A stretch of 56,247 nucleotides of DNA from a virus (IMGVR_UViG_3300049433_000067:1-56247); one strand, 5' to 3'; shown: positions 37,298 to 53,351, counted from the stretch's first letter. Numbers and translations: made by a program. Notes: a model not told the origin generated them from the sequence alone.

Positions 37298-37539
37298 GAC
37301 GCTCGCCGCCTGACGCCGGCCGGGCGCAGGTCGCCGGGGTTGGCTGGTGTGTGCGTGTGCATCTGGACGATCTGTTCGAGCTGCGCATCACTGAAATGGA
37401 TCTTGTTGGCGATGCGGGTATACGGGATACGCGACTTCTGCACGTTGTCCTGAAGCCACCTCGCGGTGAGCTGCAGACCGTGCTCGGTCAGCAGTGCCGC
37501 GGCCTCGTGGAGGCTGTGGAAGATCGGCAGGTTCGTCAT
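37294..37539 (-). CDS. Excisionase-like HTH protein
   Basis: Start 37539; HSLHEAAALL...RWL...IPYTRIANKIHFS; second gene of the early lytic operon. Confidence 0.7.
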   Translation of the reverse strand: MTNLPIFHSLHEAAALLTEHGLQLTARWLQDNVQKSRIPYTRIANKIHFSDAQLEQIVQMHTHTPANPGDLRPAGVRRRAS

Positions 37540-37784
37540 GCGACCGGCTCGCAGGTCTTCGCCGCCGGATAGGTGCACAGAGCCGCGACGGTCGTGTCGA
37601 GCGCCGCCGCGATCCGTTCCAAGTCGGTTAGCGAGAAGGGAACCTCGCCGCTGAGTCGCTTCGACAGCGCCGATTCGTGCTTGAACCCGGCACTGCGCAC
37701 GAGGTCGCGCTGCGCCCACCCGCGAGTCTTCAGCTCGTCGCGGATGATGCTGACGACGTGCTGCGTGATCGGGACTTCCTGCAT
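37536..37784 (-). CDS. Cro-like XRE HTH regulator
   Basis: Start 37784; WAQRDL..SAG...SALSKRLSGEVPFSLTDLERIAAAL; divergent from the repressor. Confidence 0.82.
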   Translation of the reverse strand: MQEVPITQHVVSIIRDELKTRGWAQRDLVRSAGFKHESALSKRLSGEVPFSLTDLERIAAALDTTVAALCTYPAAKTCEPVA

Positions 37785-37795
37785 GACGTGAAGAC

Positions 37796-37904
37796 TTCCT
37801 GTTTTAGGAAAGTCTGTCAAGTCAAAGAGAACACTTCCTTTCACGGGAAGTACTCTTAACGCCGAGTTGCCAGTTCCCGTGAGGGGAACCTAGGCTGGCC
37901 AGTA
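37796..37904. promoter_or_regulatory. Lysis/lysogeny switch: three TTCC-N7-GGAA operators and divergent promoters
   Basis: Operators at 37796, 37835, 37874; rightward TTGCCA(37867)-18-TAGGCT(37891); leftward TTGACA (37820-37815). Confidence 0.8.
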
Positions 37905-38198
37905 ATGGGCACCGAGCAGGCGCCGGCCTTGCCGGACAGCGCGGAGTTCCGGGCGGCATTGGCCGACGAACTCCGCGTCCTACTCGTCCGAAAAAAGATG
38001 ACGCAGCGCGTCGTCGCGCAACGGTTCGGCTGGCATGAGAACGCGGTGTCGAAGCGCCTGAGCGGCGAGGTGCGGTGGGACGTCTACGACCTGCTGGCCC
38101 TGTGTTACATGCTGGGTACGGACATCGGCACGGTGACCGAGGCCGCGCGGCGAGCTGCCGCCGCAGGATCCAGCGAGGACGACGCTGCCGCGCTCTAA
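37905..38198 (+). CDS. Immunity repressor (CI-like XRE HTH)
   Basis: MTQRVVAQRFGWHENAVSKRLSGEVRW; recognition helix SKRLSGE shared with the Cro-like protein. Confidence 0.8.
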   Translation: MGTEQAPALPDSAEFRAALADELRVLLVRKKMTQRVVAQRFGWHENAVSKRLSGEVRWDVYDLLALCYMLGTDIGTVTEAARRAAAAGSSEDDAAAL

Positions 38199-38585: not shown

Positions 38586-38761
38586 TCTCGGCGTGCGAGG
38601 AGCCGGGCGTTCGCCCCGCCCGGCCCCCTCTCGCAGATCAACGAACACACACCGTAAATGTGACGGTCGATCTTGCCGACGTTTTCCGATCGGATCAGCA
38701 CGAAGCGGCATTTAGCGTGTCCCCTACGCCTTCATGATCACCAACCGGGCAGTCTGCGGCC

Positions 38762-39100
38762 GTGGAGGACTGGTCGCGCGTCGGCGGGCAGATCCGCGCC
38801 GCACGCCGCCGCCTCGGCTACACCGTCAAAACCCTCGCCGAAGCGACCCACCTGTCGACCCGGACCATCAACAACCTCGAACACGGCCACCAGCACAACT
38901 ACGACGACGACACCCTCGCCTTCGTGGAGGCTGCGCTCGGCTGGGACGACGGCGAGATCCGAGCCCGCGCGACCGGCCAGCGCCCCCGCCGCACCCACCC
39001 CGAGGATCTACGCCTCGTGATCAGCGCCTGGCCGAGGCTGTCCGAAGCCGATCGGCGGCTGATCGTGGCGATGGTCAGGGAGCGCCGCGGCCGCGGATGA
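38762..39100 (+). CDS. XRE-family HTH regulator
   Basis: IRAARRRLGYT...LAEATHLSTRTINNLEHG...VEAALGW. Confidence 0.85.
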   Translation: MEDWSRVGGQIRAARRRLGYTVKTLAEATHLSTRTINNLEHGHQHNYDDDTLAFVEAALGWDDGEIRARATGQRPRRTHPEDLRLVISAWPRLSEADRRLIVAMVRERRGRG

Positions 39101-39157
39101 CTGGACGCCCACCCGGGGGCGGTGGACACTGGCGCGCCAGACCATCTGGGGGGAACC

Positions 39158-39634
39158 ATGCTGGCCAAACTCGCCATGACCGTCGTCGTGCTCGCCATGG
39201 CCGCCGCGTGCAGCTCCGGGAAGCACACCGCCGCGAGCACACCGACACCCAGCCCGAGCAGCGCCTCGTCGACGCCCATCACGGACACGCCGACAGCTGA
39301 GCCCTCGCCGGCCATCGACGAGACCGGCCGCACCACCTGCGGCATGTTGAAGGCGAACCGCACACTGCAGTCAACGGTGGGGTTCATCATCGTCGCCGGG
39401 GTCGTGAACGAAGGCGACGTCCTGCCCACCGTCGACGAGTTGCAGCTCGAAGCGTCCGAGGCACCGGCCGAGTTCCAGCACGGCTTGACCAGCCTCGCTG
39501 CCGTGTTGCAGGAGATCGACGACTCGCTCGCGGCCGGCGGCGGGGACAGCATCGACACGTCATCCGTGCAGCCCAACGTGAACCTGCTGGTCGGGATGTG
39601 CCGCGCGCGGGGCGTGCCGATCCCTATGGAGTAG
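39158..39634 (+). CDS. Lipoprotein, possible superinfection exclusion
   Basis: Signal peptide with lipobox-like AAAC, then a Ser/Thr/Pro linker; lysogenic-strand location. Confidence 0.65.
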   Translation: MLAKLAMTVVVLAMAAACSSGKHTAASTPTPSPSSASSTPITDTPTAEPSPAIDETGRTTCGMLKANRTLQSTVGFIIVAGVVNEGDVLPTVDELQLEASEAPAEFQHGLTSLAAVLQEIDDSLAAGGGDSIDTSSVQPNVNLLVGMCRARGVPIPME

Positions 39635-40940
39635 CCACCCGCCGGAACGCCACCACCACATCGCTGTCGGTGTCGTCGAGCCACTCCAGGGACCGCTCGA
39701 CCGCATCGTTCACCGCGTCGTCCATCTCGGGCATCTCGTGCCCGTACCGGTCGACGGTGACCTGGATGGAGGCGTGCCCGAGCCGCTTCGAGATCACCGG
39801 CAGCGACAGGCCCTCGGCGATGAGCAGCGACGCGTAGGAGTGCCGCAGGTCATGCACCCGCGGCTCCTTCGTCAGCACGCCTTCGCACTGGCACGGGCGC
39901 GCGGCCGGCGGGCGGATCCGTTTACCGGTCTCGGCCTGCCGGGCGAGTCGCTTCGCCTTCTCCCCGACGGTCTCACCGCCTGCCTCGACGTGCTCGTCGC
40001 AGACGGAGGCCCGGGCGACGGCCGGGATCCACGCGTTGTCGTGGAACGTCGAGTTCAGCAGCTGCCCACCGAACCGGGCCGGGAACACCAGATCGTCCGC
40101 CCGGCGGCCACCGGCCAGGGGGCGTAGCGCGGCAACCAGCCGCGGGGAGAGGGTGAGCTTGCGCCGCGCACGGCGGGTCTTCGGCTCACCGACCGAGTAG
40201 GTGCCGTCGTCCTGCCGCTTCCACGCCCGCACCACCCGCGCCGCCGGCCGTTTCCCGTCGAGGACCAGGTCACCGACCCGCAGCGCGGTCGCCTCGCTGT
40301 ACCGCAGCCCCGTCGCCCACAGCAGCAGCGTCAGCGGCCGGTAGAACTCCGGGACGTGCCGGTAGATGAGCGCGAACTCGGCCGGGGTGAGGAACACCAT
40401 CTCCTCGGCCTTCACGTCGGGCAGCTCCCGCAGCTTCGACGCGAACGGGTTGTGGTCACACACCGGCGGCCGGTGCGTCATCCCGTCGGACATGATCGAT
40501 GACACCAGTCCGTGGACGTTCTGGATGGTTTTCGCGGCGAGCTCGGCGGCGATCAGCTGGTCGAGCCAGGTCGCGACGTGGGTCGCGGTGATGCCGTCGA
40601 CGGGGAGATGCCCGAGGTGCGGGTGGACGTGCCGCTTGAGGTCGCGCCGGTAGTCGGCCTTGGTGCGGTCGTTGGCCTTGGTGCGCAGGCTGATGGCTTG
40701 CTCGGCCCATTCGCGGAACGTGATGCCGGCGCCGGTCTTGGCTTCGCCGGTGTAGCCGTGGCCCTTGATCCAGCCGTGCGGCCACCGGTTGCCGGACCCT
40801 TCGACGAGTCCCCTGAACCGGTCGGCCTCCTGTGCGGTGACGAACAGTTCGGTCTGCCGGTCGGCGCGGTCGGCTTGGCGCCAGTACACCCGCCACGTCG
40901 GGCCGGTGGTCTTGTTTTCCCGCTTCTGGATTCCCGCCAT
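39624..40940 (-). CDS. int: Tyrosine integrase
   Basis: Start 40940 (MAGIQKR); TGLRYSE, HDLRH, LGH, DRYGH catalytic motifs; adjacent attP. Confidence 0.95.
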   Translation of the reverse strand: MAGIQKRENKTTGPTWRVYWRQADRADRQTELFVTAQEADRFRGLVEGSGNRWPHGWIKGHGYTGEAKTGAGITFREWAEQAISLRTKANDRTKADYRRDLKRHVHPHLGHLPVDGITATHVATWLDQLIAAELAAKTIQNVHGLVSSIMSDGMTHRPPVCDHNPFASKLRELPDVKAEEMVFLTPAEFALIYRHVPEFYRPLTLLLWATGLRYSEATALRVGDLVLDGKRPAARVVRAWKRQDDGTYSVGEPKTRRARRKLTLSPRLVAALRPLAGGRRADDLVFPARFGGQLLNSTFHDNAWIPAVARASVCDEHVEAGGETVGEKAKRLARQAETGKRIRPPAARPCQCEGVLTKEPRVHDLRHSYASLLIAEGLSLPVISKRLGHASIQVTVDRYGHEMPEMDDAVNDAVERSLEWLDDTDSDVVVAFRRVATP

Positions 40941-40997
40941 ACCGGGCATGCTAGCGCGAGGCCGGTTCCGTGGTGGTTCCGCGACTCCCCTGAGACG

Positions 40998-41028
40998 CTT
41001 ACAGCCCCCGGAAATCGGGGGCTGTAAG
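40998..41028 (-). terminator. Terminator-like hairpin following the att core
   Basis: 13-bp perfect stem cttacagcccccg / cgggggctgtaag, loop gaaat. Confidence 0.75.
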
Positions 41029-41030
41029 AG

Positions 41031-41055
41031 TGGAGGTGGCGGGAATCGAACCCGC
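41031..41055 (-). other. attP core = 3' end of tmRNA (ssrA)-like RNA
   Basis: - strand GCGGGTTCGATTCCCGCCACCTCCA: T-arm plus acceptor 3' strand with U70/A73 (Ala identity); no 5' half present. Confidence 0.8.
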
Positions 41056-41130
41056 CTGAACGGCCCGCGAACGCTCGCCTCCGTCATATCAGCCCAGCAA
41101 ATACGGGCAGTGCAGCACGGCGCCCGACAG

Positions 41131-41150
41131 CCACAGACACCCACAGACAC
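41131..41150. repeat. Tandem ccacagacac x2 in the attP arm
   Basis: Perfect 10-bp tandem repeat; candidate Xis/Int/TraB binding site. Confidence 0.5.
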
Positions 41151-41209
41151 GCGTTTGGTGCCGCATGGAACCAGGATTCTCGCGGTCGCGCGCGCAATTC
41201 GCGCGTAGT

Positions 41210-43123
41210 TCAGCCGGCGAGCTCGGCCGGGTCCTCTGTAGCCGACCACACACCGTGCCGGACCTGCACCGCGAGGCCGTCCTGTTCGAGGCGGCGCAGC
41301 GTGGACGACACGGTCGGCAGCGGCGCCCCGACCCGCTCGGCCAGCGCCCCGGTGCGGATCTGGGCGTGCTCACGGAGCTGGGCGAGGATCGCGTCGCGGG
41401 TCGACCGTGCGACGTCGTCAATGGGGGCGAGCTCGATGACGGCGGCCGGTTCCCGTTCGTCGTCGTCGCGGCGGGCGCGCCACGACGTGTAGTCCTCCCC
41501 GGCGTCCTCGGCTGCCGCCTGGTCGAGCGTCACCGACGGCGCCGGGCAGGTCGCCCAGTAGTACGGGTCCTCGACGTACTGCCCGCGCATCGGCGACACC
41601 CGGCCACCGGCCGACGCGACATACCCGAGCCCAGCCGTCGACGTGCCGTCGGGCCACTGCTCAGGCAGGTTCACCGGGTCGACCGGCAGATCCTTCGGCA
41701 TTCCCATCTTCCCCGACAGCCGGTCCGACGTGCGGAACATGACGATGTTCATCGACGACACCATCGACCGGATCGTGACGTTCCCGCCGAGCTCCCCCAC
41801 CGACGGGACCTGCGCGACGACGTCGACGGACACCCCCAGCTTGCGGCCCTTCTTCGCGATCAGGGCGATGATCCCCACACAGTCAGGGTCGTTCATGACG
41901 TCCGGGGATTCGTCGATCACGATCGTCAGCTGCGGCTCGCCCGGGGTCGGGTCGAACGCGGCGAGGCCACGCCGCTGCCGGCCCTGCTCATCGGTCCACA
42001 CGCGGCGGGCGCGGCGCTTCTTCCGCCCGTTCATGACCCGCTCGGCGGCCTGCAGCATGCGGCGGATCTCCGGCACCGACGGCGCGAACCAGTCGGCGGC
42101 GTCCTGCCAGTCGGGGACGGAGACGCCTTCCTCCGGGTCGGCGAGCCACAGCACGACGACACCGGAGTGGCGGATCTCGGTGCACAGCAGGTTGATGAAC
42201 GTCGACTTCCCGGAGCCGGTGGTGCCGGCGATCAGCCCGTGGCAGGCGCCCGAGCCGGGGGTGAACAGCCGCCAATAGGCGGTGGTGCCGTCGGCGTACA
42301 CGCCGATCGGGAACTGCCCAGTAGCGAGGTCGAGTTGCGGGCCGGTGAACATCTGCGTCGTCTGCAGAGGGTTACGGGTCAGCACGAGCAGCCGCGCCCG
42401 GTGTGCTTCCCCGGTGGCTGGTGCTTCGATGACGACCGATGTGCTGGGCACGCCGTAGGCGGAGGCGATGCGGCCGGCGGCGCTGATGGCCTCGATCGTG
42501 GTCTGCTTCCCGCCGACCAGCGCGATCGACGCGGACCAGCCGGTCGCGACCGCCGCGACGTCGTACAGCCGCGAACCGGGCAGCGCCCCGCCCGGGCCAG
42601 CGACCCGCTGCGCCCACACCTCGAACCGGTCGTCATCGTCGGGGATCTGCGTCCGGATCCGGTGATGCCACCACCACGGCACCGCGGCGGCGATGAACAG
42701 GGCGGCGAGCCAGCCCGGCATCGGCGGCCCGAACCCGATGACCGCGGTGGCCTGCAACCAGCCGAAACCGCCGAGGAACACGCCGGCGGCGTAGACCCGC
42801 TCGGCCGTCCGCCAGCCACGCCGGTGGGCACGCCACCAGGTGAGCAGCCCGAGCGGCAGCGTGAACAGTACGACGGTGTTCGGGCCGTGCGGGCTGACCG
42901 CGAACACCACACCCGCGACATACAGCAGCCCGGTAGCGACGAACGGGGCTAGCGGCCGGCGGCGGGCGAAGGAATGCCGGGCGAGCGCGCGGCTGGCCCG
43001 CCACGTCACCCGGGCTACCCCCCGCTTCCGGCCCGGCGTGCGGGTCAGGGCACGGTTCTGGGCGTGCAGCGCTCGGCGCACTGCAGCGTCGATAGCCGGG
43101 TCGGGGGCTGGCTGGCTGTGCAT
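41210..43123 (-). CDS. traB: FtsK/SpoIIIE-family conjugative DNA translocase (TraB-like)
   Basis: N-terminal TM helices; HGLIAGTTGSGKS Walker A; IVIDE Walker B; KKGRKLGVS...AQVP; C-terminal winged helix. Confidence 0.85.
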   Translation of the reverse strand: MHSQPAPDPAIDAAVRRALHAQNRALTRTPGRKRGVARVTWRASRALARHSFARRRPLAPFVATGLLYVAGVVFAVSPHGPNTVVLFTLPLGLLTWWRAHRRGWRTAERVYAAGVFLGGFGWLQATAVIGFGPPMPGWLAALFIAAAVPWWWHHRIRTQIPDDDDRFEVWAQRVAGPGGALPGSRLYDVAAVATGWSASIALVGGKQTTIEAISAAGRIASAYGVPSTSVVIEAPATGEAHRARLLVLTRNPLQTTQMFTGPQLDLATGQFPIGVYADGTTAYWRLFTPGSGACHGLIAGTTGSGKSTFINLLCTEIRHSGVVVLWLADPEEGVSVPDWQDAADWFAPSVPEIRRMLQAAERVMNGRKKRRARRVWTDEQGRQRRGLAAFDPTPGEPQLTIVIDESPDVMNDPDCVGIIALIAKKGRKLGVSVDVVAQVPSVGELGGNVTIRSMVSSMNIVMFRTSDRLSGKMGMPKDLPVDPVNLPEQWPDGTSTAGLGYVASAGGRVSPMRGQYVEDPYYWATCPAPSVTLDQAAAEDAGEDYTSWRARRDDDEREPAAVIELAPIDDVARSTRDAILAQLREHAQIRTGALAERVGAPLPTVSSTLRRLEQDGLAVQVRHGVWSATEDPAELAG

Positions 43124-43165
43124 GGTTCCTCCGGCTCGTTCCAGCGATGGGGCTGTCGACTAGGC

Positions 43166-43205
43166 CACCGGCGGGGACCGCGGGGGGTCGGTGGCCCCGC
43201 CGGTG
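43166..43205 (-). terminator. Stem-loop between the Spd-like gene and traB
   Basis: caccggcgggg / ccccgccggtg 11-bp inverted repeat. Confidence 0.5.
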
Positions 43206-43222
43206 ACGTACTCGGCAGCCGC

Positions 43223-44074
43223 TCAGGCCTGGTAGAACGACTTGTCGGCTGCGTGCGGGGTAGCGGCGTGCGCCTCCTGCATCAGGGAATGCCGGGACTG
43301 CACACCCTTCAACGCGGTCTCGGCCTGCGCGAGCTGCGCGTCGGCCGCGGACGCCCGCAGGTCGGCGGCCTTGGCGCGCTGCCCAGCGGTCTCGGACAGG
43401 GCACCCACGTCGGCGATCGTCGCCTGGTCGAGGTCGAGCGCCTCCAGCGAGGAGACCATGTTGTCGAAGCGGGTGACGTTCTCGGCGGCGCGTTTCATGT
43501 CGGCCTGCGCGTCCTCGAGCTCGGAGGCGGCGTCGGTGGCGATGTCGTTGAGTTCGCGGAGCAGCTGGTCCATGGTGAGTACTTCTCCGCCGGTGCTGCT
43601 GGTGATGGTGGCCATCGGTTCGGTTCCTTCCGTAGTGGTGTCGATCGGGTCGGTGTACGGGGTGCTGTCCCGGTCCGGTCCGGGGTCGGTGAAGGCCTCG
43701 GTCCCGGCTGGGCGGGACACATCCGGGACCGAGACGTCTGAGGCCGGCTCGCGCCGGATGTACGGGAGCGGGCCTGTCTTCTGCTCCGCGAACTGGGCGG
43801 CGTCGCGGTGCCGCTGGCGAGCCTCGGCCCACTCCGGCCACTTGCCAGCCAGCCACCGGCCGCCCGCGACGCCGGCAGTGACGCCAAGGCTGACGCCGCC
43901 GATCACGCCAGCTACGACACCACCGACCAGCCCCGCGGCAACACCGGCCACGACTCCCGCGGCGAGGCCGGCGGCGGCGCGGAACGGTGCGATCGCGTCC
44001 GGTTGCCGCTTCATCCAGCGGGAGATCGCGTACGCGGCCGCGGCCACGATCAAAATGCCAATGACTGCTTCCAT
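43223..44074 (-). CDS. Membrane + coiled-coil protein (Spd/Tra accessory-like)
   Basis: Start 44074 with AAGGAG RBS; TM helices with GxxxG repeats, then a coiled-coil C-terminus. Confidence 0.65.
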   Translation of the reverse strand: MEAVIGILIVAAAAYAISRWMKRQPDAIAPFRAAAGLAAGVVAGVAAGLVGGVVAGVIGGVSLGVTAGVAGGRWLAGKWPEWAEARQRHRDAAQFAEQKTGPLPYIRREPASDVSVPDVSRPAGTEAFTDPGPDRDSTPYTDPIDTTTEGTEPMATITSSTGGEVLTMDQLLRELNDIATDAASELEDAQADMKRAAENVTRFDNMVSSLEALDLDQATIADVGALSETAGQRAKAADLRASAADAQLAQAETALKGVQSRHSLMQEAHAATPHAADKSFYQA

Positions 44075-44088
44075 CGGGATCAAGCTCC

Positions 44089-44568
44089 TTATGCGAGGCC
44101 GAAGGCCTGGCTGATGCCCCACGCAACTACCGCGACGAGGGCTGTGACTGCGGTGTAGGCGGCGTGGCCGAGCGGGCCGGGAATGGTGCTGACGCTGACC
44201 GGGACGAGCACAGCGAGCAGCAGCGTCCAGTTGTCGACCTTGCTGTCCTTCAGCCGCACAATCAGCACGAACGTCGCGATGCCACCGAGCAGCCCGGTTA
44301 CGGCTGTGCCGGTCCATCTGGTCGTCACGTTCGCGGCGGCCTGGTTGGCCCAGTCGACGACCGAGCGGAGCCAGGCGCCGACCGGCGTGCCGAGCATTCC
44401 GGCCGCACCAGTCATGAGCAGCAGCACGGTCAGCCGTGGGGCGTGGTGGCCTGTGAACCACAGGCTGCCTGCGACGGCCAGGGCGACCAGGCCGATCAAG
44501 GCGGACACGGTGCCGTTCAGGTGCAGGCTGTTCAGGTCGGGTGCCGTGGCAGCGGCCAATTGGATCAT
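44089..44568 (-). CDS. Multi-pass membrane protein (Spd-like)
   Basis: About 5 hydrophobic helices; AAGGAG RBS; in the traB operon. Confidence 0.65.
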   Translation of the reverse strand: MIQLAAATAPDLNSLHLNGTVSALIGLVALAVAGSLWFTGHHAPRLTVLLLMTGAAGMLGTPVGAWLRSVVDWANQAAANVTTRWTGTAVTGLLGGIATFVLIVRLKDSKVDNWTLLLAVLVPVSVSTIPGPLGHAAYTAVTALVAVVAWGISQAFGLA

Positions 44569-44912
44569 GATCGTGCTCCTTCGGGGTGGGCCGCCTCGCG
44601 TACGCGTGCGCGCGGGTCACGTCCGCGCGCGCCGCCTGTGTGCGTTGGGGCCTCGAAATTGGCAGACGGTCGTGCGAAATTTGCATGCGAATATGGGTCG
44701 GGGACCAGCCCGTCTAGTAGCCCCGTGAGCAGGCGCCACGCTGCGACCTGCTCGCTGGCGGGCAGCTTCCGGATGCGTGTCCGGACGCCTTGATAGGCGA
44801 GGTGCGACTGCGCGGACGGCGTCGTCGCCGCGGCCCTACGCTCAGCCCAGAATTCGGCTTGCCGCTGGTCGCGGCGCTGAGCCCGCTCCTCGCCTCGGGT
44901 CGGCTTGGTCAT
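44565..44912 (-). CDS. Hypothetical protein in the transfer operon
   Basis: ATGA-coupled start 44912 (MTKPTRG). Confidence 0.6.
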   Translation of the reverse strand: MTKPTRGEERAQRRDQRQAEFWAERRAAATTPSAQSHLAYQGVRTRIRKLPASEQVAAWRLLTGLLDGLVPDPYSHANFARPSANFEAPTHTGGARGRDPRARVREAAHPEGARS

Positions 44913-45649
44913 CGCCCCGCCTCCACTGCGGCCGACTGCTCGGCCGCGTTCCACCGGCGGATCAGCTTGCGGCCGTAGCCGTCCTTCGTGCCCCCGACCC
45001 GGTCAAGGTCGGCACCGGTGGGTGTCCGGCCAGCGGTACGTTCCCGGTCGTAGTGCTCCCGCATGGCCCGCTCCGCCCCGCCGCGTCCGGCCGGGACCAG
45101 CTCGAGCCGACGGGCGGGACTGGCTGGCACCGCATGGCGGGCTTCGGGGCGGGCCTGCGGCCGGGACTGCGTGCGGGCCTCAGCCCGGGCCGTCGTCCGG
45201 GACCGGTCCGCGCTGACCAGTACCGCCGTGTGCACGACCGCGCCGAGCATCAACGGCGGGACAGCCGCGACCGCGACGACTACCCAAGCCCGGGCCGAGG
45301 ACGGGTCGACGTGGTAGACGGCGTTGCCGGCCATCGACGCGGCGATCGCGGCCAGCGCGTTCGCCCGCGCCCAGTCTCGGGTGCCTTTGCTGGTCCCGGA
45401 CCGCAGCCACACCCGGGTCGCGGTCGCCGCGTAGGCGTCCACCGCGATCGGGAACAGCCACGCCAGCCGCAGCGGGCCGACTTCGCCGCGCACACCGGCG
45501 AGGGCCGCGAGGCCGGCGAGGGCCGCGAACGACATGACTGCGGCCGCCGCGCCGACCACGAGCAGGCCGGTCGCCGTGGCCCGGTCACCGTGCCGGGACT
45601 GACCAGTTCCCTCACTCGGGGATACCCTTGCGGGCACAGAGGTTGTCAT
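44909..45649 (-). CDS. DUF2637 / SpdA-like membrane protein
   Basis: SFAAL..LA..AG...LAWLFPIAVD...S.AGNA..H...VAAVPP; C-terminal HTH-like segment. Confidence 0.78.
   Translation of the reverse strand: MTTSVPARVSPSEGTGQSRHGDRATATGLLVVGAAAAVMSFAALAGLAALAGVRGEVGPLRLAWLFPIAVDAYAATATRVWLRSGTSKGTRDWARANALAAIAASMAGNAVYHVDPSSARAWVVVAVAAVPPLMLGAVVHTAVLVSADRSRTTARAEARTQSRPQARPEARHAVPASPARRLELVPAGRGGAERAMREHYDRERTAGRTPTGADLDRVGGTKDGYGRKLIRRWNAAEQSAAVEAGR
45091..45204. repeat. 8-bp motif SCGGG(A/C)CY array, candidate clt/TRS
   Basis: Copies at 45137, 45149, 45161, 45173, 45185, 45197 (12-bp period), plus 45114 and 45091. Confidence 0.55.
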
Positions 45650-45725
45650 ACCGGCGACGGTATGTAGCCGCTGGCGCGGGCGGGACTGACCAGAAGTGCC
45701 GCTCTAGTCGAGGAGACGTGACGCG

Positions 45726-46781
45726 GTGGCCACATCCGGGCGTAAACCACTCACCGGGGGTGAGGCCCTGTCCGGACGGATCGCCGGAACGGTACTTCAG
45801 GCGGTCCGGCAGGCCGCCGGGCTGACCCAGGCGGACCTCGCCGAGCACGCCGCGACGGGCCTCACCACGGTGCAGGGATGGGAGTCGGGACGCCGCCCGC
45901 TGATCAACGTCCGGCACGCGGAACTGGGCCGGCTCCGGAGGCTGCTGCAGACGAGCGGCGCCGACCCGAAGTTGCTGCGGCTCCTCGACCCGGCGCTGAC
46001 CGCCGACACGATCCTCGCCGAGATCAGCACCCCCGACCCGGAGCTGCATCCGCTCGCGCTGCTCGTCCCCGACCGCACGCTGACCGAGCTGCTGGCGTGG
46101 CCAATCACCGGCACCCCACCACGGCAGCTCCGCGACACCCGCGCACACCTACCAGTCGGCGCCGGCGTACGTGAGCATCTCGTCGCCCAACTGCGGGAGC
46201 TCGCCGAACGCGCCCCCGCCTCCACGACGGCCGGGGCGATGCTGCGCCGGCAGGCCCAGTTCCTCATCGCCAGCCACCCCGGGTTCCGGGAATGGGCCAC
46301 CGACGCGATCCGGGCAGACCTACGCCGAGCCAGCCTCGGCGACTGGTCCGTGCAGTGGCCAGTCGCCCGCTCCCATGCCGTCTCATCGGCGATCGCCGGC
46401 GACCTTGAGCCGCTGCACCGGTTCGCCGACGAAGGCCTAGCCACCGAGCAGGGCACCGCAGCGAACCTCACCTACTGGGCGTACTGGGTCGGTGAGATCA
46501 GCGGTCAGTGGGCCAACGACTCGGAGATGCTCCGCGACCAGGCCTGGTCTGGTGAGACGCTGCTGGAATCGCTCACCGAGGGCATCGTCAACGCGCCGTA
46601 CCGGGAGCTGTGCGCGCACACGTTGTGGGCTTTGATCCGGGTCAAGCGTGGACTGGTAGCTAGCCCGGGCGCGGCCGCGAAGATCGGAACAGCGATCGAC
46701 GCTGCCCTAGCTGACGGTATGGTCCCCGAAGCGGCCCGCCGGAAGCTGGAGCAGGTCGACTACCTCGTGAGGAGCCGCTGA
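45726..46781 (+). CDS. XRE-family HTH regulator with a large C-terminal domain
   Basis: VRQAAGLTQADLAE...TTVQGWESGRRPL; GAGGAG RBS; divergent from the transfer operon. Confidence 0.82.
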   Translation: MATSGRKPLTGGEALSGRIAGTVLQAVRQAAGLTQADLAEHAATGLTTVQGWESGRRPLINVRHAELGRLRRLLQTSGADPKLLRLLDPALTADTILAEISTPDPELHPLALLVPDRTLTELLAWPITGTPPRQLRDTRAHLPVGAGVREHLVAQLRELAERAPASTTAGAMLRRQAQFLIASHPGFREWATDAIRADLRRASLGDWSVQWPVARSHAVSSAIAGDLEPLHRFADEGLATEQGTAANLTYWAYWVGEISGQWANDSEMLRDQAWSGETLLESLTEGIVNAPYRELCAHTLWALIRVKRGLVASPGAAAKIGTAIDAALADGMVPEAARRKLEQVDYLVRSR

Positions 46782-47380
46782 TGGACGACGCCGCGATCAT
46801 CGGGTTCGCCTACGAGGCCGGCTACCTGAAGCGGCTCCCCCGCGCTGGGTGGCTGCTCGGCGGTGTCCGTACGCCGGAGTCCGTCGCCGAGCATTCGTTC
46901 CGGGTCGGGGTGATCGCGTACGCGCTGGCCGTCCAGGAGGGCGGCAACCCGGACCGTGCCGCGGCTCTCGGCCTGTTCCATGACCTGCCCGAGACCCGGA
47001 TCGGTGACGTGCCCTCCGTCGGGCGCGGCTACGTCACCACCACCCGGCCGCACTCGATCATCCTCGACCAGGTCGCAGGCCTCCCCGACGAGCTGGCCTC
47101 GCATATCGTGGCGCTCGTCGACGAGCATGAGTCGGCGAAGACGGCGCAGGCGACCCTCGAAGCACGCTGCTCACGCGACGCGGACAAGCTCGACTGCCTG
47201 CTGCAGGCACGGGAGTACGAAGCCGAGGGGTACCGGCAGTTGGGGCCGTGGGTGTCGACGATGGTGAGCGCGGTGACGACCGAGACCGGTAAGCGGCTCG
47301 CTGTCGCGGCGCAGGAGATCCCGTCGAGCGTCTGGTGGGACCGGTTCGCCGCCTCCTACGGCATGACCCGGGAGGGCTGA
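46781..47380 (+). CDS. HD-domain hydrolase (YfbR/HDDC2-like 5'-deoxynucleotidase)
   Basis: LKRLPRAGW, ESVAEHS, FHDLPE.RIGD, DADKL; TGATG-coupled to the XRE gene. Confidence 0.9.
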   Translation: MDDAAIIGFAYEAGYLKRLPRAGWLLGGVRTPESVAEHSFRVGVIAYALAVQEGGNPDRAAALGLFHDLPETRIGDVPSVGRGYVTTTRPHSIILDQVAGLPDELASHIVALVDEHESAKTAQATLEARCSRDADKLDCLLQAREYEAEGYRQLGPWVSTMVSAVTTETGKRLAVAAQEIPSSVWWDRFAASYGMTREG

Positions 47381-47383
47381 GCA

Positions 47384-47632
47384 GTGGCTGCGAAACGCGT
47401 GACGCTGCGCCTGTACTGGCGGAAAACCAAGCAGGCCGAGGTCGACACGAACATCGACCTGGGCGACGAGAAGTACCTGCGGGAGAAGCTCGAGGAGATG
47501 GTGCTGGCGAAGCGCGGCACCCTGAAGCTGGACCTGTCGGAGTATTCGATGGTGGTGCATAAGCCGGGTGGCGGTGCGATCCAGCGGCGTGTGCTGGTGT
47601 TGCCGTCCGGCGCTACGCAGATCAAGCGCTGA
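47384..47632 (+). CDS. Hypothetical basic protein
   Basis: GGAGG RBS; third gene of the + strand operon. Confidence 0.6.
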   Translation: MAAKRVTLRLYWRKTKQAEVDTNIDLGDEKYLREKLEEMVLAKRGTLKLDLSEYSMVVHKPGGGAIQRRVLVLPSGATQIKR

Positions 47633-47653
47633 CCTTAGGCCGGACACACTGAT

Positions 47654-47697
47654 AGCGCCCCACCCAGATCCTCGCGAGAGGACCCGAGTGGGGCGCT
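47654..47697. terminator. Bidirectional terminator between convergent operons
   Basis: agcgccccac / gtggggcgct 10-bp inverted repeat. Confidence 0.65.
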
Positions 47698-47728
47698 TAA
47701 GTGTGTGTGGTGGGTCAGAAGTAGCTGA

Positions 47729-49471
47729 TCACGAGAGGGCCGCCCAATGGCAGAACGTATTGTCTAACGCCAGGGTGCCGAGAGTGCCCGGCATCGTCGT
47801 CGTCCGGCCGGTGTTGACCGAATCGCGCGTGAACCTAGCTGATGCGGCAGCGGCCTTGCCATTGGCGCTGGCGCCCGACAGGGACCGCAGGAACGCCGGG
47901 CCCGTCGTCCCGTTGTAGAACACGGCAACCCACAGATCGCCGCCGCCCCATGAGATCGCGCCGCCGCTGATCGCCATCGTCTTGGAGCCCGCCACCACCC
48001 ACGCGGCTGCCTGATCAGCGGTTGTGCCGAGCAACGCTCCCGTGGCCACGCTGTACAGGGCCGCGAAGTTCTGTCCTGCTGTGAGCGTCGCGCCGATGGT
48101 GACGACGCACATCTCGATGTTGGTGATCGTGCCCGCCGGCACTCGTATCAGCCTGGTCAGCTGTACACGGCCGGCGGTGGTGAGCGCGGAGTTGTCCCGG
48201 CACGAGTTCGGGTCCTGCGTCCACGCCGAGTAGCCGAGATCTGCGGGAAGGTACGTCGAGGCGATGGGGACTTTCGCCGCGAGGTCGGCGACGAGGTTCG
48301 TGATCTGGGCTTCGGTCAGTGTCTTCGCCGAGTCCGCGGTGTTGTCGACGTTCCCGAGCCCGACGTCGCCCTTCGTGAGGACGAGATCCGTCTTCACCTG
48401 CGCCGGGGTGCGGACAGACCACGCGGACGCCTTGGCCTGCATGATGCCGTCAGTGGTGGCCGTGAGGCTCGCGATGGTGGTCAGGTCCGAATCGAGGGGT
48501 TGCTTGGCGGCCAGGTCGCTGACCAAGCCAGTGATCTGCGATTCGGTGAACGTCTTCGATGCGTCGGCCGTGTTGTCCACGTTGCCGAGGCCAACGTCGG
48601 CTTTCACGAGGCCGAGCGCGGTCTTGAACTGGGCGTAGGTTTTCTTGATCCACCCGGCCCCGTCAGACGCGATCGACCCCGCCGTGGACGCATCCAGGGC
48701 GGCGATCGCGGTCAGGTCAGAATCGAGCGGCTGCCGCGCCGCAAGATCGGCCGTGAGGCCGGTTACCTGCGACTCAACGAGCGTGACCGGGTCGCCCCCG
48801 GCCACCGCGTGCGTGGATGCGTGCGCGGTCGGCGTGCGGGCATCTGAGAGACGCGCGTCGTTACCGGCCGCAGATGTGGTGCCGGTCGAGCCGTAGGCCA
48901 CCGTGAGAGTCCGGTCCGCGGCCAGCGTGCCGCCGCCCGTGAGGCCCGTGCCGGCGATGACCTGCCGCGTCGTCGGGACCTTGGCCGCCAGGTCGGCGAC
49001 GAGGCTCGTGACGTCGCTCTCGGCATGCGTGTGGACCATGGTTGCCTTACCTGCGAGATCCGCAACCAGGCTCGTCACGTCAGACTCGGCGTGCGCGTGG
49101 ACCGTCGACGCCTTGCCGGCTAGATCGGTCGTCAGGTTCGTAACCTGCGACTCGGCCAGCGTCACCGGATCAGACCCCGCCGCCGCGTGGGTGGCCGCAT
49201 GGCTGGTCGGCGTACGCGCATCGGACAGCCGCGAGTCGCCGGTACCTACCTTCCCGGCCAGATCACTCGTGAGTCCGGTGATCTGCGACTCCGACAAGGT
49301 GACCGGGTCGGAGCCGGCGGCAGCGTGCGTGGCCGCGTGCGGGCCCCCACCGGACGGACCGGCCGGACCCGTCGCGCCGGGCGGGCCATTCATCGTGACG
49401 ACCACCGTCTCGGTGGTGTCCGACCCGACGCCGAGATCGGCAGCGGAGAGGGTGACCGTTACCGTGTCCAT
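47729..49471 (-). CDS. Tail fibre protein with internal repeats
   Basis: Repeated HAATHAAAGSDPVTL.ESQ.T.L..DLA.K, HxHAESDV, and K.DVGLGNVDNTAD fibre repeats. Confidence 0.8.
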   Translation of the reverse strand: MDTVTVTLSAADLGVGSDTTETVVVTMNGPPGATGPAGPSGGGPHAATHAAAGSDPVTLSESQITGLTSDLAGKVGTGDSRLSDARTPTSHAATHAAAGSDPVTLAESQVTNLTTDLAGKASTVHAHAESDVTSLVADLAGKATMVHTHAESDVTSLVADLAAKVPTTRQVIAGTGLTGGGTLAADRTLTVAYGSTGTTSAAGNDARLSDARTPTAHASTHAVAGGDPVTLVESQVTGLTADLAARQPLDSDLTAIAALDASTAGSIASDGAGWIKKTYAQFKTALGLVKADVGLGNVDNTADASKTFTESQITGLVSDLAAKQPLDSDLTTIASLTATTDGIMQAKASAWSVRTPAQVKTDLVLTKGDVGLGNVDNTADSAKTLTEAQITNLVADLAAKVPIASTYLPADLGYSAWTQDPNSCRDNSALTTAGRVQLTRLIRVPAGTITNIEMCVVTIGATLTAGQNFAALYSVATGALLGTTADQAAAWVVAGSKTMAISGGAISWGGGDLWVAVFYNGTTGPAFLRSLSGASANGKAAAASARFTRDSVNTGRTTTMPGTLGTLALDNTFCHWAALS

Positions 49472-49797
49472 TCGCCGCTCACCGCAATCTGGCCCCTCAG
49501 CAACGTCGTCGCCGTATCGGTCGCCTGAACGTCGAACCCCAACCCGCCTGGCATCGCCGCCGTGACGACGTCGGTCAGGGACAACACGAGGCGCCCTGTC
49601 ACCGCGTCACTGGCGTCCACCGCGAACTCGAACGCGGTCTCCGACTTCCGGGTCGTGCGAGCCTCCGCTTTCCAGGTCGAGCCGTACACGGTCAGGTCGA
49701 CCGCTGTCAGGTCGGGCTTGTTGAACTGCACCGCAACGCTGTATCTGTCGCCGCGGTACACCTGTAGCGGCGTCGGCAGCACGACGGGCAGGCTCAT
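49459..49797 (-). CDS. BppU-like / fibre adaptor protein
   Basis: Start 49797; YRGD..., DLT..., G.L.LSL, FDVQ...LLRG.I.V motif. Confidence 0.65.
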   Translation of the reverse strand: MSLPVVLPTPLQVYRGDRYSVAVQFNKPDLTAVDLTVYGSTWKAEARTTRKSETAFEFAVDASDAVTGRLVLSLTDVVTAAMPGGLGFDVQATDTATTLLRGQIAVSGEWTR

Positions 49798-50672
49798 CGG
49801 TAGCCGTTCGCGGTCTTCCACGCGTCAAACGCGCCCCGCAGTCGCCCGGCCTTCGTCAGGTGAGAGAAGATCGTCTTCTCCCATGCGTCACCCGCAGCGA
49901 CGAGCGCCGCGTCAACCGCGCTCCCGGGTATCGGGACGGGCGCCGGTGCGGGGGACGTGATCGGCACGAACTGGGTGGCGTCGCCTTCTTCGCTGAGGAG
50001 CCGGTCGTAGTCGCCGTACTCAAACGTGAAGTACCCGGCATCCCCGTAGGTGTCGCCCCACGAGTTGACGGCGCGGAACGTCTTGTCGGCGACGTCGACA
50101 CCGACGAGCTCGAACTCGTGGCCACCGCGGACGGTCGCGTCCTTCGTGATCGACACGTATCCGGACGCGTCCGGGGAGTCGAACGAGTCGTACCAATTCA
50201 CGCCAGTGATCACAGGCCCGCTCTGTAGGGCGGTGATGACAGCGTCGAGGGACATCGCGTGCTGGTACCCGGAGATCAGGCCGGCGTTCTTCGCGGCCTT
50301 CGCGACGGACAATCCGTCCGAGCCCGAGTCGGTCGGGGGATATGTGCCGGAGTAAGAATCGAGCTTCGTGGCCGCGCTGTACAGCAGCACGGCCTCGGCC
50401 TCGTCCAGCGTCATCCCGACCTGCACATCCGCCTGCAGCGACGTCCAGAACGGGTCAGTGCCGAGCACCCCGCACGCCGCGTTGCCCGTGCACGAGCCGA
50501 GGTTCCCCTGGTCGAGCACGGGTGTCTTGCGGTCCCACACGACCGACTGAGCGAGCGCCGCGCGCGGCTTCACCTGATACGCGCGCGAACGCGGGTCGTG
50601 GTGGACGTGGCGGCCGAGGCGTTTCCCGTCGACCTGGAACTCGACGATGACCCGCCGGTGCAGATCGATCAC
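49794..50672 (-). CDS. Papain-like (C1) cysteine peptidase
   Basis: DQGNLGSCT (Gln/Cys), GGHE (His), NSWG (Asn). Confidence 0.88.
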   Translation of the reverse strand: MIDLHRRVIVEFQVDGKRLGRHVHHDPRSRAYQVKPRAALAQSVVWDRKTPVLDQGNLGSCTGNAACGVLGTDPFWTSLQADVQVGMTLDEAEAVLLYSAATKLDSYSGTYPPTDSGSDGLSVAKAAKNAGLISGYQHAMSLDAVITALQSGPVITGVNWYDSFDSPDASGYVSITKDATVRGGHEFELVGVDVADKTFRAVNSWGDTYGDAGYFTFEYGDYDRLLSEEGDATQFVPITSPAPAPVPIPGSAVDAALVAAGDAWEKTIFSHLTKAGRLRGAFDAWKTANGYR

Positions 50673-50673
50673 G

Positions 50674-51120
50674 TCAGGCAGCCAGTGCGTGATCGGCGCG
50701 GGTGGGGAGCAGAGACGCGCCTTCCGACCACGGCGCCGCGAGCGACGCGAGGGACTTCAACAGGGCAGCGATCATCGTCGGCAACGCCACCGCGAGCGCA
50801 GCTTTCCAGTCGGCGTGCACCACGGAGTGGGTCATCGTGTCGGCGGCGAGCACCGCGAAGAACGACTGCAACCCCGTCTTGATCGTCCGCCACGCCACAT
50901 CAGCTGCGACGGGAAGTTTCGGGACGGCGAAGGTGAGGATCGAGGTGATCAGCGACAGGATCGCGGCGAACCCCGCCACATCGGCGGCGAGCCCCCACTG
51001 CTGGTAGGACACGAGCCCAGCGGAGCCGGTGGCGAGGAGCAGCACCACGAACTGCTGCACGAACGTCGACCCTGCCCGCTCGAGCGGGTCGAGCACGTAG
51101 CTCTGCACGAACGGTGACAT
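50674..51120 (-). CDS. Holin (tandem r1t-like domains)
   Basis: LERAGSTFVQ and WRTIKTGLQ halves; directly after the endolysin. Confidence 0.8.
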   Translation of the reverse strand: MSPFVQSYVLDPLERAGSTFVQQFVVLLLATGSAGLVSYQQWGLAADVAGFAAILSLITSILTFAVPKLPVAADVAWRTIKTGLQSFFAVLAADTMTHSVVHADWKAALAVALPTMIAALLKSLASLAAPWSEGASLLPTRADHALAA

Positions 51121-51129
51121 GCCGGTCTC

Positions 51130-51966
51130 CTAGGGGGTGTTGTCGACGGAGCCGAGCACCGTGCGGAGCGCGGCCTCGAGCTCGGCTTGCGGGATATTCA
51201 GGTTCGGCAGAGCGGCGACGAGCAGCGGCGTCAACGCGGCGGCGAACCCGGCCGGGGTGAGCGCGCCGACCCGCTGCGCGACCGTCGCGGTTTGGGTGGC
51301 GGCGGCGACGACCCGGCCCCGGGTGTCGTTCAGGATCTCGGCGAGGGTGCCGTTGTACGGGCTGACACCGCGGGTGATCACAGCTGTCGCCACGTCCTTG
51401 GCGAGGGCGTCCTGGTCGGCCTTCGGCCAATCGGTGTAGGGCATGTCGTCGTCTCCTCCGTTAGGTGGGGTTCCGTGGGCGGCGGCGAGCATCGCCGACC
51501 GCTGGTCGCGGCGGACACCTGGGCACGCCGAGTGGCCCCAGTCGAAGCCATGCGCCGCGCCCATGCCGTGCCAACCAAAGCCGCGCTGGCCGGGGACCTC
51601 GGCCAGCTGTAGCGGGATGTCGTGGGTGGCTTTCGCCCATGCGAGGATCCCGCCGATAGCGGCTATCTGCGCGGGAGTGGCTAGCTCCGATGCGAGGCCC
51701 TGCGACTCGATCGACAGGTAGGTGTCGTTGCCGTCTTTCTGGCACCACGACGAATACTGGGTGTCGATGTACTGCCAGACGGTGCCGTCCTTCGCGACCT
51801 GGAAGTGGCAGGACATTCCGTTGTCGCCGGTGATCCACCCGTACAGGTCGCGGGACTGAGCGTCGTTGACGTGCAGTACGACACCGAGGTGGGCTTGCAT
51901 CACGCCGTTGCTGAAGTTCCCGGGCGCGCCGACGTCACGCCAGATGGCTTTCGGGTATCTGGCCAT
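51130..51966 (-). CDS. Endolysin, N-acetylmuramoyl-L-alanine amidase
   Basis: Start 51966; VVLH, SCHFQV..DG...QY, SIES, GWH, HSACPG. Confidence 0.9.
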   Translation of the reverse strand: MARYPKAIWRDVGAPGNFSNGVMQAHLGVVLHVNDAQSRDLYGWITGDNGMSCHFQVAKDGTVWQYIDTQYSSWCQKDGNDTYLSIESQGLASELATPAQIAAIGGILAWAKATHDIPLQLAEVPGQRGFGWHGMGAAHGFDWGHSACPGVRRDQRSAMLAAAHGTPPNGGDDDMPYTDWPKADQDALAKDVATAVITRGVSPYNGTLAEILNDTRGRVVAAATQTATVAQRVGALTPAGFAAALTPLLVAALPNLNIPQAELEAALRTVLGSVDNTP

Positions 51967-52688
51967 CAGGGGCTTGCCGGTGGTGAGGTGCAGATGATCA
52001 CGGAGCCTCCGTCGAGTTGCGGCTGAGCGGTGGGGGTGTAGCCGGGCCCGCATTCGGGGCCTGCGGGTCCGGACGGCCCGCTCGGTCCGGGGTCGCCCTG
52101 CGGCCCTGTCGCGCCGTCGGTTCCGTTGGTGCCGTCTTTCCCATCAGCGCCGGCCGGCCCGGTCGGGCCTTGGGCGCCTTCAGGGCCGGTGACGGACGAG
52201 CCCGACGGGCCGGCTGGCCCGGTGACCGATGTGCCGTCGGCGCCACGCACGCCGGGCAACCCCTGCGGACCGATGTGGCCGGTGTCGCCCTTCGGGCCTT
52301 GCGGACCCTGCGGCCCGACGAGCGGCACCGTCACGGTCTGCGTGACGGTCGGCACCGGCACCTGCGAACTGGGCGTCGGCACTGGTGGGAGGTTGTTCGC
52401 CTTCAGCCGGCCGTTGGCTTGGTTCGCGACGCCCTGCGCCTGCGCGGCGGCGACGCATCCGGCGCGTTTGTCGTCCACCTTGCACGGTTCGTTCACGGCA
52501 CGGTCGGTCGCCTTCGACGCTGACTGCAGATATACGACGATCCCGGCGAGCACCACGGCGAGGATGATCAGCGCAATCCACACGGCCCGGTCCCGCCAGA
52601 ACGGCTCGGCCGGCCCGGTGTGCTTGCCGCCGATACGGTCCAGATCCTCGGGCGGCAGTGATTCCGGGATCGGGGGGAACTCAGTCAT
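51966..52688 (-). CDS. Membrane-anchored collagen-like protein
   Basis: TM helix followed by Gly-X-Y repeats. Confidence 0.8.
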   Translation of the reverse strand: MTEFPPIPESLPPEDLDRIGGKHTGPAEPFWRDRAVWIALIILAVVLAGIVVYLQSASKATDRAVNEPCKVDDKRAGCVAAAQAQGVANQANGRLKANNLPPVPTPSSQVPVPTVTQTVTVPLVGPQGPQGPKGDTGHIGPQGLPGVRGADGTSVTGPAGPSGSSVTGPEGAQGPTGPAGADGKDGTNGTDGATGPQGDPGPSGPSGPAGPECGPGYTPTAQPQLDGGSVIICTSPPASP

Positions 52689-53007
52689 GGGGGGCCTTCG
52701 GCAGTTGCGGCAGCCGCTGCTGCTCGCATTCGTCCCACCGTTTGCGGAACATCTCGGCCCGGTTCTCTGCGCGGGTCACCCGCGACTGGAGCCGCTCCAT
52801 CTCCGGGACGACGAACTTCTCGCGGTACTCCTGGATGGCTTCCTCGGACGTGGCCCGGTTGTGTTTGCGCTGCGTCGCCTTCGACGGCTTCGCGCGCCGT
52901 GTCGTGATCAACGCGACCAGCACCCCGCCGAGCGCGGTGAACAGTGCACCTATCGCGATCCACAAGCTTCCCGAGTTCGCGTCGAGAGCAGCGTCGGCTA
53001 GCCACAC
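52681..53007 (-). CDS. Membrane protein (lysis cassette)
   Basis: N-terminal TM + coiled coil. Confidence 0.6.
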   Translation of the reverse strand: MWLADAALDANSGSLWIAIGALFTALGGVLVALITTRRAKPSKATQRKHNRATSEEAIQEYREKFVVPEMERLQSRVTRAENRAEMFRKRWDECEQQRLPQLPKAPHD

Positions 53008-53041
53008 TGGTCACCCCTGCCCGCTCTGTGCTGGTCGGTGC

Positions 53042-53347: not shown

Positions 53348-53351
53348 CGGC

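Follow-up and report, generated by a model that had tools for sequence, protein, structure and literature searches.

The window analysed here is a whole virus record of IMG/VR, IMGVR_UViG_3300049433_000067 (56,247 bp). It is a metagenome contig from a soil phage with a filamentous actinobacterial host, which is not in culture. Between the tail-fibre gene and the attP/integrase region lies a 6.4-kb block (41189-47632) that consists of a five-gene minus-strand operon, ending in a gene for a TraB-like double-stranded DNA (dsDNA) translocase (the pump), and a divergent plus-strand operon for an XRE-family regulator, an HD-domain hydrolase and a small protein. The block and its edges contain the following features.

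41186-41207: GC-rich hairpin just past the traB stop; left edge of the block
41210-43123, minus strand: TraB-like dsDNA translocase, 637 aa (Pfam, NCBIfam, AlphaFold2, Foldseek and trees)
43223-44053, minus strand: 276-aa membrane-anchored protein, hydrophobic at 20-65
44089-44559, minus strand: 156-aa polytopic membrane protein (Spd-like)
44565-44954, minus strand: 129-aa protein, basic and soluble; its gene overlaps the DUF2637 gene at the latter's end
44909-45649, minus strand: DUF2637 membrane protein, first gene of the operon (Pfam 2.4e-11)
45594-45693: control region between the divergent operons; a 13-nt direct repeat occurs twice without mismatch, at 45594-45606 and 45681-45693 (spacing 87)
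45726-46781, plus strand: XRE-family regulator, 351 aa (Pfam HTH_31, 1.9e-7)
46781-47380, plus strand: HD-domain metal-dependent phosphohydrolase, YfbR-like (Pfam HD_3, 4.4e-25)
47399-47632, plus strand: 77-aa protein, last gene of the block (94% in the relative G001, 71% in G002)
47654-47697: hairpin with 20-bp arms that separates the 77-aa gene from the tail-fibre gene convergent to it

The gene calls reproduce exactly the coordinates that the initial annotation gave for the two divergent operons. All eight genes are intact, as it had said of the open reading frames (ORFs), and are conserved in relatives, and the hairpin it placed between module and tail-fibre gene is present. A simple terminator scan missed this hairpin because it has no T-run, and gave nothing useful at the block borders; a sigma-70 promoter scan returned 0 sites. 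Ratios of nonsynonymous to synonymous change (Ka/Ks) against G001 are 0.05-0.24 for all eight genes, which are thus under purifying selection. The pair of 13-nt repeats, kept in G001 and not in G002, is a candidate operator.

The TraB-like pump and its partner genes

The pump has the TraB domain layout that had been predicted for it, with an anchor, an FtsK-type motor and a C-terminal winged helix. Hydrophobic segments at 56-79 and 127-146, together with AlphaFold2 (AF2) helices at 59-156, form the N-terminal membrane anchor. Pfam finds FtsK_SpoIIIE (PF01580, 1.3e-7) and HTH_24 (1.3e-6); the HTH_24 and MarR matches lie at 578-617, and the winged helix (575-628) is modelled by AF2 as helices at 575-614 followed by two strands. 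A Walker A motif is placed around G300-S307 and an acidic Walker B at E405, and G300, G305, K306 and E405 are invariant in the family alignment (A1). The AF2 model (pLDDT 86) begins with a helical anchor at the N-terminus, continues with an alpha/beta motor and ends in the winged helix.

The best NCBIfam match of the pump is plasmid_TraB (1e-24, 87.1 bits, residues 56-546 on positions 26-510 of the 639 in the model), with EccCa second at 3e-7. A motor-domain profile built from window residues 195-520 of alignment A1 scores 86.5 bits against the TraB of pCQ3 and 79 bits against that of a 13.5-kb plasmid, over nearly the whole domain, compared with 48-54 bits for three EccC proteins, 49 for one FtsK and 40 for the Tra protein of pIJ101. 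In a quick tree of 45 rows the family and TraB stand together (SH-aLRT 90). A careful IQ-TREE of 43 rows, which leaves out P0007 as a duplicate and L022 and pIJ101 Tra as long branches, splits 39 family and TraB rows from four FtsK/EccC rows with support 99/96, and the ATPase thus groups with TraB against FtsK and EccC, as the initial annotation had expected. In Foldseek the top match, over about 400 aligned columns, is 6t8b, an FtsK motor bound to dsDNA (E 9e-14), and later matches are EccC and the coupling protein TcpA of pCW3. Identity to annotated TraB proteins is about 25%. Taken together, these comparisons place the pump nearer to TraB than to anything else, in a distinct clade; it probably works like TraB.

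The ATPase could also be part of a HerA/FtsK-type anti-phage or anti-plasmid defence carried by the prophage. PADLOC gives a weak match of its P-loop core to mad8 (1.1e-10, 39.5 bits) and to HerA (1.1e-5), and Foldseek lists HerA defence complexes at an E of about 1e-5. These matches do not extend beyond the ATPase core common to such proteins, however, and the TraB match (1e-24 over 490 residues) is much stronger. The other seven genes have no convincing PADLOC match (the 276-aa protein weakly resembles LeoBC at 1.1e-4, the other six have none), and the synteny of the module is that of plasmid transfer operons. A defence role is highly improbable.

The four genes upstream of the pump gene in the operon encode three membrane proteins, its presumptive partners, and a soluble protein. 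The DUF2637 protein (PF10935) scores 44.2 bits against a cut-off of 22.8, and 5.7e-13 in a whole-record search, and has hydrophobic segments at 24-55 and 117-147. The 129-aa protein is without a hydrophobic segment, has a Ka/Ks of 0.21 and is conserved at 91% aa in G001 and 50% aa in G002 (E 8e-26). Six overlapping hydrophobic windows in the 156-aa protein are consistent with four to five segments, and the protein is 34% identical (BLASTP, E 3e-19) to its positional counterpart in the operon of a linear plasmid of Streptomyces (L006:6573-7040). The 276-aa protein has a C-terminal helical domain of about 125 aa that is kept beside every close TraB-like gene and is found as a free-standing 133-aa protein in two chromosomal loci. 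A complex prediction for this domain with the pump gave no verdict either way (score 0.00, in a run without controls). The 276-aa protein was also considered as a TraA; this was ruled out, since hhalign of its family against canonical TraA gave a probability of 0.1.

The XRE regulator has relatives in 37 of 72,556 plasmid records and in 0 of 50,697 phage records. It is of plasmid/AICE type (AICE: actinomycete integrative and conjugative element), and a candidate for a Kor-like repressor that controls the transfer operon. A Saccharothrix plasmid also has XRE and HD genes side by side.

The carrier phage, its attachment site and its relatives

GC3 (third codon position) frame analysis together with ORF calling gives 87 genes in the window. 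Among them PHROGs recognises a full siphophage complement (the large terminase TerL, portal, protease, scaffold, major head, connectors, major tail and lysis), and also a DnaB-like helicase, so that the helicase, integrase (Int) and excisionase-like (Xis-like) genes that had been attributed to the phage itself are all named. In the PHROGs scan, to which dedicated Rep models were not added, none of the 87 proteins is named as a plasmid Rep, and no partition genes are named. The features outside the block are as follows.

10878-11930: major head (PHROGs)
15723-17390: large terminase, TerL (PHROGs)
Within the PHROGs set of the window: tape-measure-sized gene, 1259 aa
37294-37539: Xis-like gene
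37536-38198: divergent repressor pair
39624-40940, minus strand: tyrosine integrase (Pfam Phage_integrase 1.2e-15; phrog_1 4e-56)
40995-41031, minus strand: replacement terminator hairpin after the attP core
41031-41057, minus strand: attP core, identical to a tmRNA 3' end
47729-49471: tail-fibre gene, convergent to the module
47729-55373: tail-fibre and lysis genes (PHROGs)

In sequence the attP core equals the 3' terminus of tmRNA genes of Pseudonocardiaceae. Over 26 nt it matches the tmRNA 3' end at 100% in 3 of 61 genomes of the family of G002, the core has a match at E <= 0.001 in 54 of the 61, and ARAGORN called a tmRNA at all four attP-matching places inspected, which confirms the tmRNA targeting that had been proposed. 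ARAGORN finds no tRNA or tmRNA gene in the window itself, where the tmRNA 3' fragment at attP is detectable at an E of about 3e-4 only, and an Rfam gathering scan has no match in the window or in L002 and L003. The traB stop (41210) is 153 bp from the attP core, a distance estimated earlier at about 150 bp. The core has one match in the window at up to 3 mismatches, and no second att core is found.

The record is classed by CheckV as linear and 80% complete. Its ends have no terminal overlap of at least 12 nt, and the cut tail gene would stay open for 77 more codons across a hypothetical junction. The ends of the sister phage G001 (57,168 bp) map to about 17850-17972 of the window, beside HNH/terS; because they fall inside the window, the window is a permuted, near-complete copy. 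Positions 17850-17972 are probably the physical genome end (cos region), which is closed in the window. With both this terminase-proximal junction and attP closed, the DNA would have been sequenced as free or replicating phage DNA and not as an integrated prophage.

Several other genes of the window lie outside the main subject. A small serine recombinase/invertase (phrog_125, 5.8e-55) at 18985-19548 (minus strand) adjoins the HNH/terS end region, with a MerR-like regulator near it at 19770-19994 (minus strand). Three consecutive DNA methyltransferase genes (phrog_111, phrog_56 and phrog_363; 29090-31226, minus strand) in the early region probably serve anti-restriction. At 38899-39576 the GC3 caller chose a minus-strand ORF whose product is oddly Ser/Ala-rich; the G001 equivalent is two opposite-strand genes, one with HTH_3, and the plus-strand pair 38734-39100 and 39122-39634 is therefore probably real.

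G001 is a close relative of the window phage (TerL 99% aa, major head 74% aa). It shares the block at 93.8% nt identity over 41189-47632, in the same position and with the same right border at 47632, where its homology starts; the homology is interrupted at 41177/41189, and an insertion of 2.2 kb (Ro60/TROVE) separates the traB hairpin of G001 from the attP arm. In G002, a metagenome-assembled genome (MAG) of Pseudonocardiaceae, the 53,990-bp contig C233 has all eight genes of the block (pump 61% aa, XRE 83%, HD 82%), flanked by collagen-like tail-fibre and lysis genes on one side and by a serine integrase on the other. The terminase, portal and head genes of C233 belong to PHROG families other than those of the window.

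The block might owe its place to an assembly chimera, or to a separate AICE nested in or accreted to the phage. The record is a linear metagenome contig at 80% completeness, the block borders against G001 are sharp (47632; 41177/41189), and phage-ICE tandems formed by accretion are described for streptococci (PMC13651849; ICE: integrative and conjugative element). Both borders are bridged with 0 differences, however, by Logan contigs of run X1, the probable source run (39851-41709 and 41692-50000). Run X2, a second sample, has the arrangement of G001: 2320 additional letters separate 41073 from 41189, and the sequence diverges at 47632. The bridging rests on assembled Logan contigs, which come from another assembler. 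Two other contigs, those of G001 and G002, have the block with these borders too, and G002 keeps it despite a different integrase and different head genes. No direct repeat of at least 9 bp is common to both borders (shuffled expectation 0.5 shared 9-mers), and no recombinase lies within or next to the block; the only other recombinase of the window is the serine invertase at 18985-19548, about 22 kb away. An IMG/VR integrase scan for close relatives without the block returned only G001 and two distant proviruses. The initial annotation had named a chimera at the borders, and an att site or integrase of the module's own, as findings that would speak against it, and neither was found. Because of the bridged borders, the single attP core, the recurrence in G001 and G002 and the Ka/Ks of 0.05-0.24, both the chimera and the nested element are very unlikely.

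The insertion in G001 (L002 11900-13891) holds a Ro60/TROVE and vWA gene (Pfam 6e-63) between the positions that match 41189 and 41177 of the window. About 380 nt of non-coding DNA before this gene contain three similar repeated units and a tRNA-like T-arm. This DNA looks like Y-RNA-type partners; an Rfam gathering scan gave nothing there.

Distribution of the pump clade and likeness to known elements

In tblastn searches, relatives of the pump occur in 205 of 72,556 plasmid records (179 of them Streptomyces; 18 cover at least 80% of the query), and GenBank phages give one weak partial match in 50,697 records. The block has no match in GenBank phages by megablast, nor has the DUF2637 protein by tblastn. 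In the family of G002, 13 of the 61 sampled genomes have a pump relative at E <= 1e-40. Linear plasmids of Streptomyces microflavus and Kitasatospora have the gene order DUF2637, small protein, about 155 aa, about 400 aa, small protein and pump, and the 13.5-kb Streptomyces plasmid has a GntR regulator and, divergently, a small gene, DUF2637, TraA and TraB. Clade provenance, synteny, the plasmid-type XRE and the XRE-HD cassette together identify the block 41189-47632 as that part of a plasmid or AICE which serves regulation and transfer.

An IMG/VR scan with alignment A1 confirmed 253 relatives among 583 pattern matches, from which 80 loci were kept; the 15 with the longest matches were looked at in detail. 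A phrog_9 large terminase accompanies the TraB-like gene in 8 of these 15 records, some with direct terminal repeats. G005 and G013, proviruses in isolate genomes, combine a terminase with a TraB-like gene of this family. DUF2637 is found in 7 of 17 records (the 15 plus G000 and G001), five of them above the Pfam cut-off. Five loci were annotated in detail, and three of these have a divergent GntR/UTRA regulator; one has a serine recombinase directly after the pump, and in one a pair of NUDIX genes lies upstream and terS/TerL follows 3 kb downstream. Such GntR and NUDIX partners are also those of AICEs. An AICE-style transfer set has thus entered several actinophage lineages.

Two Jatrophihabitantaceae MAGs hold orphan pairs (L004 9487-11605 and L005 9566-11677), each a shortened TraB-like gene of 555-569 aa with a 133-aa partner. 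No integrase or Spd gene lies in the 10 kb upstream of either pair, or downstream in about 0.2 kb (L004, to the contig end) and about 1 kb (L005). The pairs may be domesticated or remnant copies, and they indicate that the pump family is not bound to mobile elements.

On an Amycolatopsis plasmid (H25) the gene under the TraB-like match is annotated as a 'sigma-70 family RNA polymerase sigma factor'. Automatic naming seems to be led astray by the winged helix. On the Saccharothrix plasmid CP091383 (L109 1-875) a gene of about 725 aa with that annotation lies at the end of an operon divergent from XRE-HD.

The closest known system is the TraB/Spd system of pSVH1, pCQ3, pIJ101 and pSAM2. There as in the window, the pump combines an anchor, an FtsK-type motor and a C-terminal winged helix, small or hydrophobic Spd-like genes including DUF2637 precede it, and the regulator is divergent. 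The window differs in that its pump forms a separate clade, its regulator is XRE and not GntR, and it has no TraA homologue and no identified array of clt (the site that TraB recognises). The carrier is also different, a 56-kb tailed phage instead of a plasmid or a 9-24 kb AICE.

AICEs share further traits with the window. According to te Poele et al. 2008 (PMC2440964), all AICEs have an integrase, a GntR- or XRE-family regulator and attP beside int, and pMEA100 and pSE211 have an Mdp - Nud - XRE cassette in common. The window likewise has an XRE regulator divergent from the transfer operon, and its Int has attP directly adjoining and aimed at the 3' end of a tRNA-like gene. As in pMEA100 and pSE211, XRE stands beside a metal-dependent (HD) phosphohydrolase near transfer genes and int-attP, in Pseudonocardiaceae hosts; the window is without the Nudix gene, and the likeness is one to the cassette as described. 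AICEs are, in contrast, about 9-24 kb in size, with a plasmid-type Rep (RepSA, RepAM or Prim-Pol) and no virion genes, whereas the window has 56 kb and a virion set.

Transfer genes on phages have precedents. pZL12 (GQ919031) is 90 kb in size and has ParAB, a divergent GntR and an FtsK-like gene, pZL12.71c, with adjacent genes for large and membrane proteins. PMC7157519 lists pZL12/phage ZL12 as a singleton extrachromosomal actinophage, and its conjugal transfer is reported to need its tra gene plus two neighbours (PMC3583192). pZL12 is thus the experimental precedent for a tailed temperate actinophage with a functional tra. It resembles the window in its phage type, its FtsK-like tra gene with neighbouring large or membrane proteins and its divergent regulator, but it is an extrachromosomal plasmid-prophage with ParAB, whereas the window is a 56-kb phage with Int/attP aimed at tmRNA. 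pZL12.71c has no profile or BLASTP match to the window pump, and the two pumps, not being detectably related, suggest independent capture. According to Thoma et al. 2015 (PMC4447253), the phages phiC31 and VWB have SpdB2 homologues, and a role in the spread of phage DNA was proposed for a phage-borne membrane protein of the Spd type. These phages have, per PMC4447253, a lone Spd homologue, whereas the window carries a full operon with the pump. Full-text literature searches returned no paper describing an integrating tailed phage with a TraB operon. What is new, then, is an integrating, tmRNA-targeting siphophage with an AICE-type XRE-Mdp and TraB/Spd block of a distinct pump clade; phage-borne tra genes were already known.

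A proposed route of transfer and its meaning

The reading that we favour, with a confidence only modestly above even, is that the block is an AICE or plasmid regulation-plus-transfer part that became fixed in a tmRNA-integrating temperate siphophage of a Pseudonocardiaceae-like host, which would leave the phage with two routes of spread, by virions and by contact. The identity of the block, its synteny, its conservation and its place in the genome are observed, and from them we infer a mechanism. The XRE regulator, with the HD hydrolase, would keep the divergent DUF2637-to-traB operon off, like a kil-kor pair; AICE regulators have nucleotide hydrolases as partners, to which the HD hydrolase may correspond. 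Once the operon is derepressed, a TraB-like hexamer would sit in the membrane at a hyphal contact or septum, bind phage DNA through its winged helix and drive the phage genome, as excised or replicating double-stranded DNA, into the compartment or hypha next to it. Its Spd-type partners in spreading would be the three membrane proteins (DUF2637, 156 aa and 276 aa), and the incoming genome could integrate through Int/attP or grow lytically. The initial annotation is thus partly supported: the anatomy it described is borne out, and the transfer of the phage circle without virions that it envisaged may follow from this anatomy.

The three Spd-type membrane proteins among the five operon genes would also suit a module that spreads phage DNA only within one mycelium, across septal cross-walls during lytic growth or after infection, and so raises the yield. 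The operon has its own divergent regulator, however, and lies at the accessory genome end beside attP, outside the early and late genes, which fits a control independent of the lytic cycle. Moreover, plasmid TraB alone suffices for intermycelial transfer (PMC4447253). Spread restricted to one mycelium is rather unlikely.

The weakest point of the contact-transfer mechanism is the cis site, since no convincing clt-like repeat array emerged. The clt locus is a cluster of direct 8-bp repeats recognised by the TraB pump (PMC4447253). No clusters of exact 7-9-mers are found near traB, and no 8-mer is enriched genome-wide (z at most 3.2). The motif GACCCGGA, presumably the 8-bp motif of pSVH1, has 13 copies in the window, all in coding context, against 5.5 under dinucleotide shuffles. 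Against codon-order shuffles it is not enriched (13 vs 11.3; 96 of 300 reach 13). Post hoc, it shows some clustering, with five copies in the module (reached in 1 of 300 shuffles) and four in 46035-47000 (2 of 300). Another word, CCGGGAC, which came post hoc from an unbiased search, gathers in the DUF2637 gene and in the linker part of the 276-aa gene, and its copies at these places fall in all three reading frames. It is strongly clustered in the module of G002 (20 of 46 copies; 0 of 300 shuffles). In the module of the window the same word is weak (10 of 31 copies; 9 of 300 shuffles) and has no cluster excess.

This negative search for clt on the phage is also in keeping with the possibility that the module is a moron, aiding the lysogen or prophage by excluding or competing with incoming AICEs and plasmids or by mobilising chromosomal DNA, and not moving the phage genome. 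The attR-proximal accessory position is typical of lysogenic-conversion genes, pump and partner pairs stand as orphans in chromosomal contexts, and AICE transfer is known to mobilise chromosomal DNA (PMC11571958). On the other hand, the whole transfer operon is kept under purifying selection in three phages with different integrases, and exclusion would not need a five-gene translocation set. The known conjugal immunity factor is a Nudix protein (PMC2440964), which is absent here. A moron is unlikely, though it deserves some weight.

Besides the lack of a clt array in the window, several other observations weigh against a contact route carried by an AICE-derived block. The regulator is XRE where GntR is usual, and the block has no Nudix gene. 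The pump scores 87.1 bits where the equivalog model plasmid_TraB (NF041214) has a cut-off of 800 bits; it is not an equivalog, and its TraB-like clade is without any characterised member. The three phage pumps form a group at 99 in the quick tree, but their monophyly is weak in the careful tree (86/45). The match of the P-loop core to defence ATPases counts here too, as do the two Jatrophihabitantaceae MAGs, in which ordinary chromosomal genes surround the pump and a 133-aa partner, without the rest of the module. It is just as conceivable that a pump located close to the end of the prophage benefits the lysogen.

The block is present in three phage genomes, and more distant TraB-like genes occur in at least 8 further terminase-bearing IMG/VR records, which makes the question a general one. 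More broadly, a phage lineage of Pseudonocardiaceae may have permanently joined AICE regulation and transfer modules to a full virion programme, its excised genome moving both in capsids and by TraB pumping; this we put forward as a tentative proposal, somewhat short of probable.

The spread of phages is usually modelled as limited by virions and receptors. If the proposal is true, temperate phages of mycelial bacteria would quite generally have a route of spread by contact that has been overlooked, one that escapes receptor-based resistance and extracellular decay and lets lysogeny spread through the mycelium without killing. Phage-AICE intermediates would then be a living link behind the long-noted phage-like integration modules of AICEs. 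The boundary between prophage and AICE would be blurred, with a bearing on host-range prediction, on how cargo moves horizontally in antibiotic-producing actinomycetes and on ideas about where AICEs came from.

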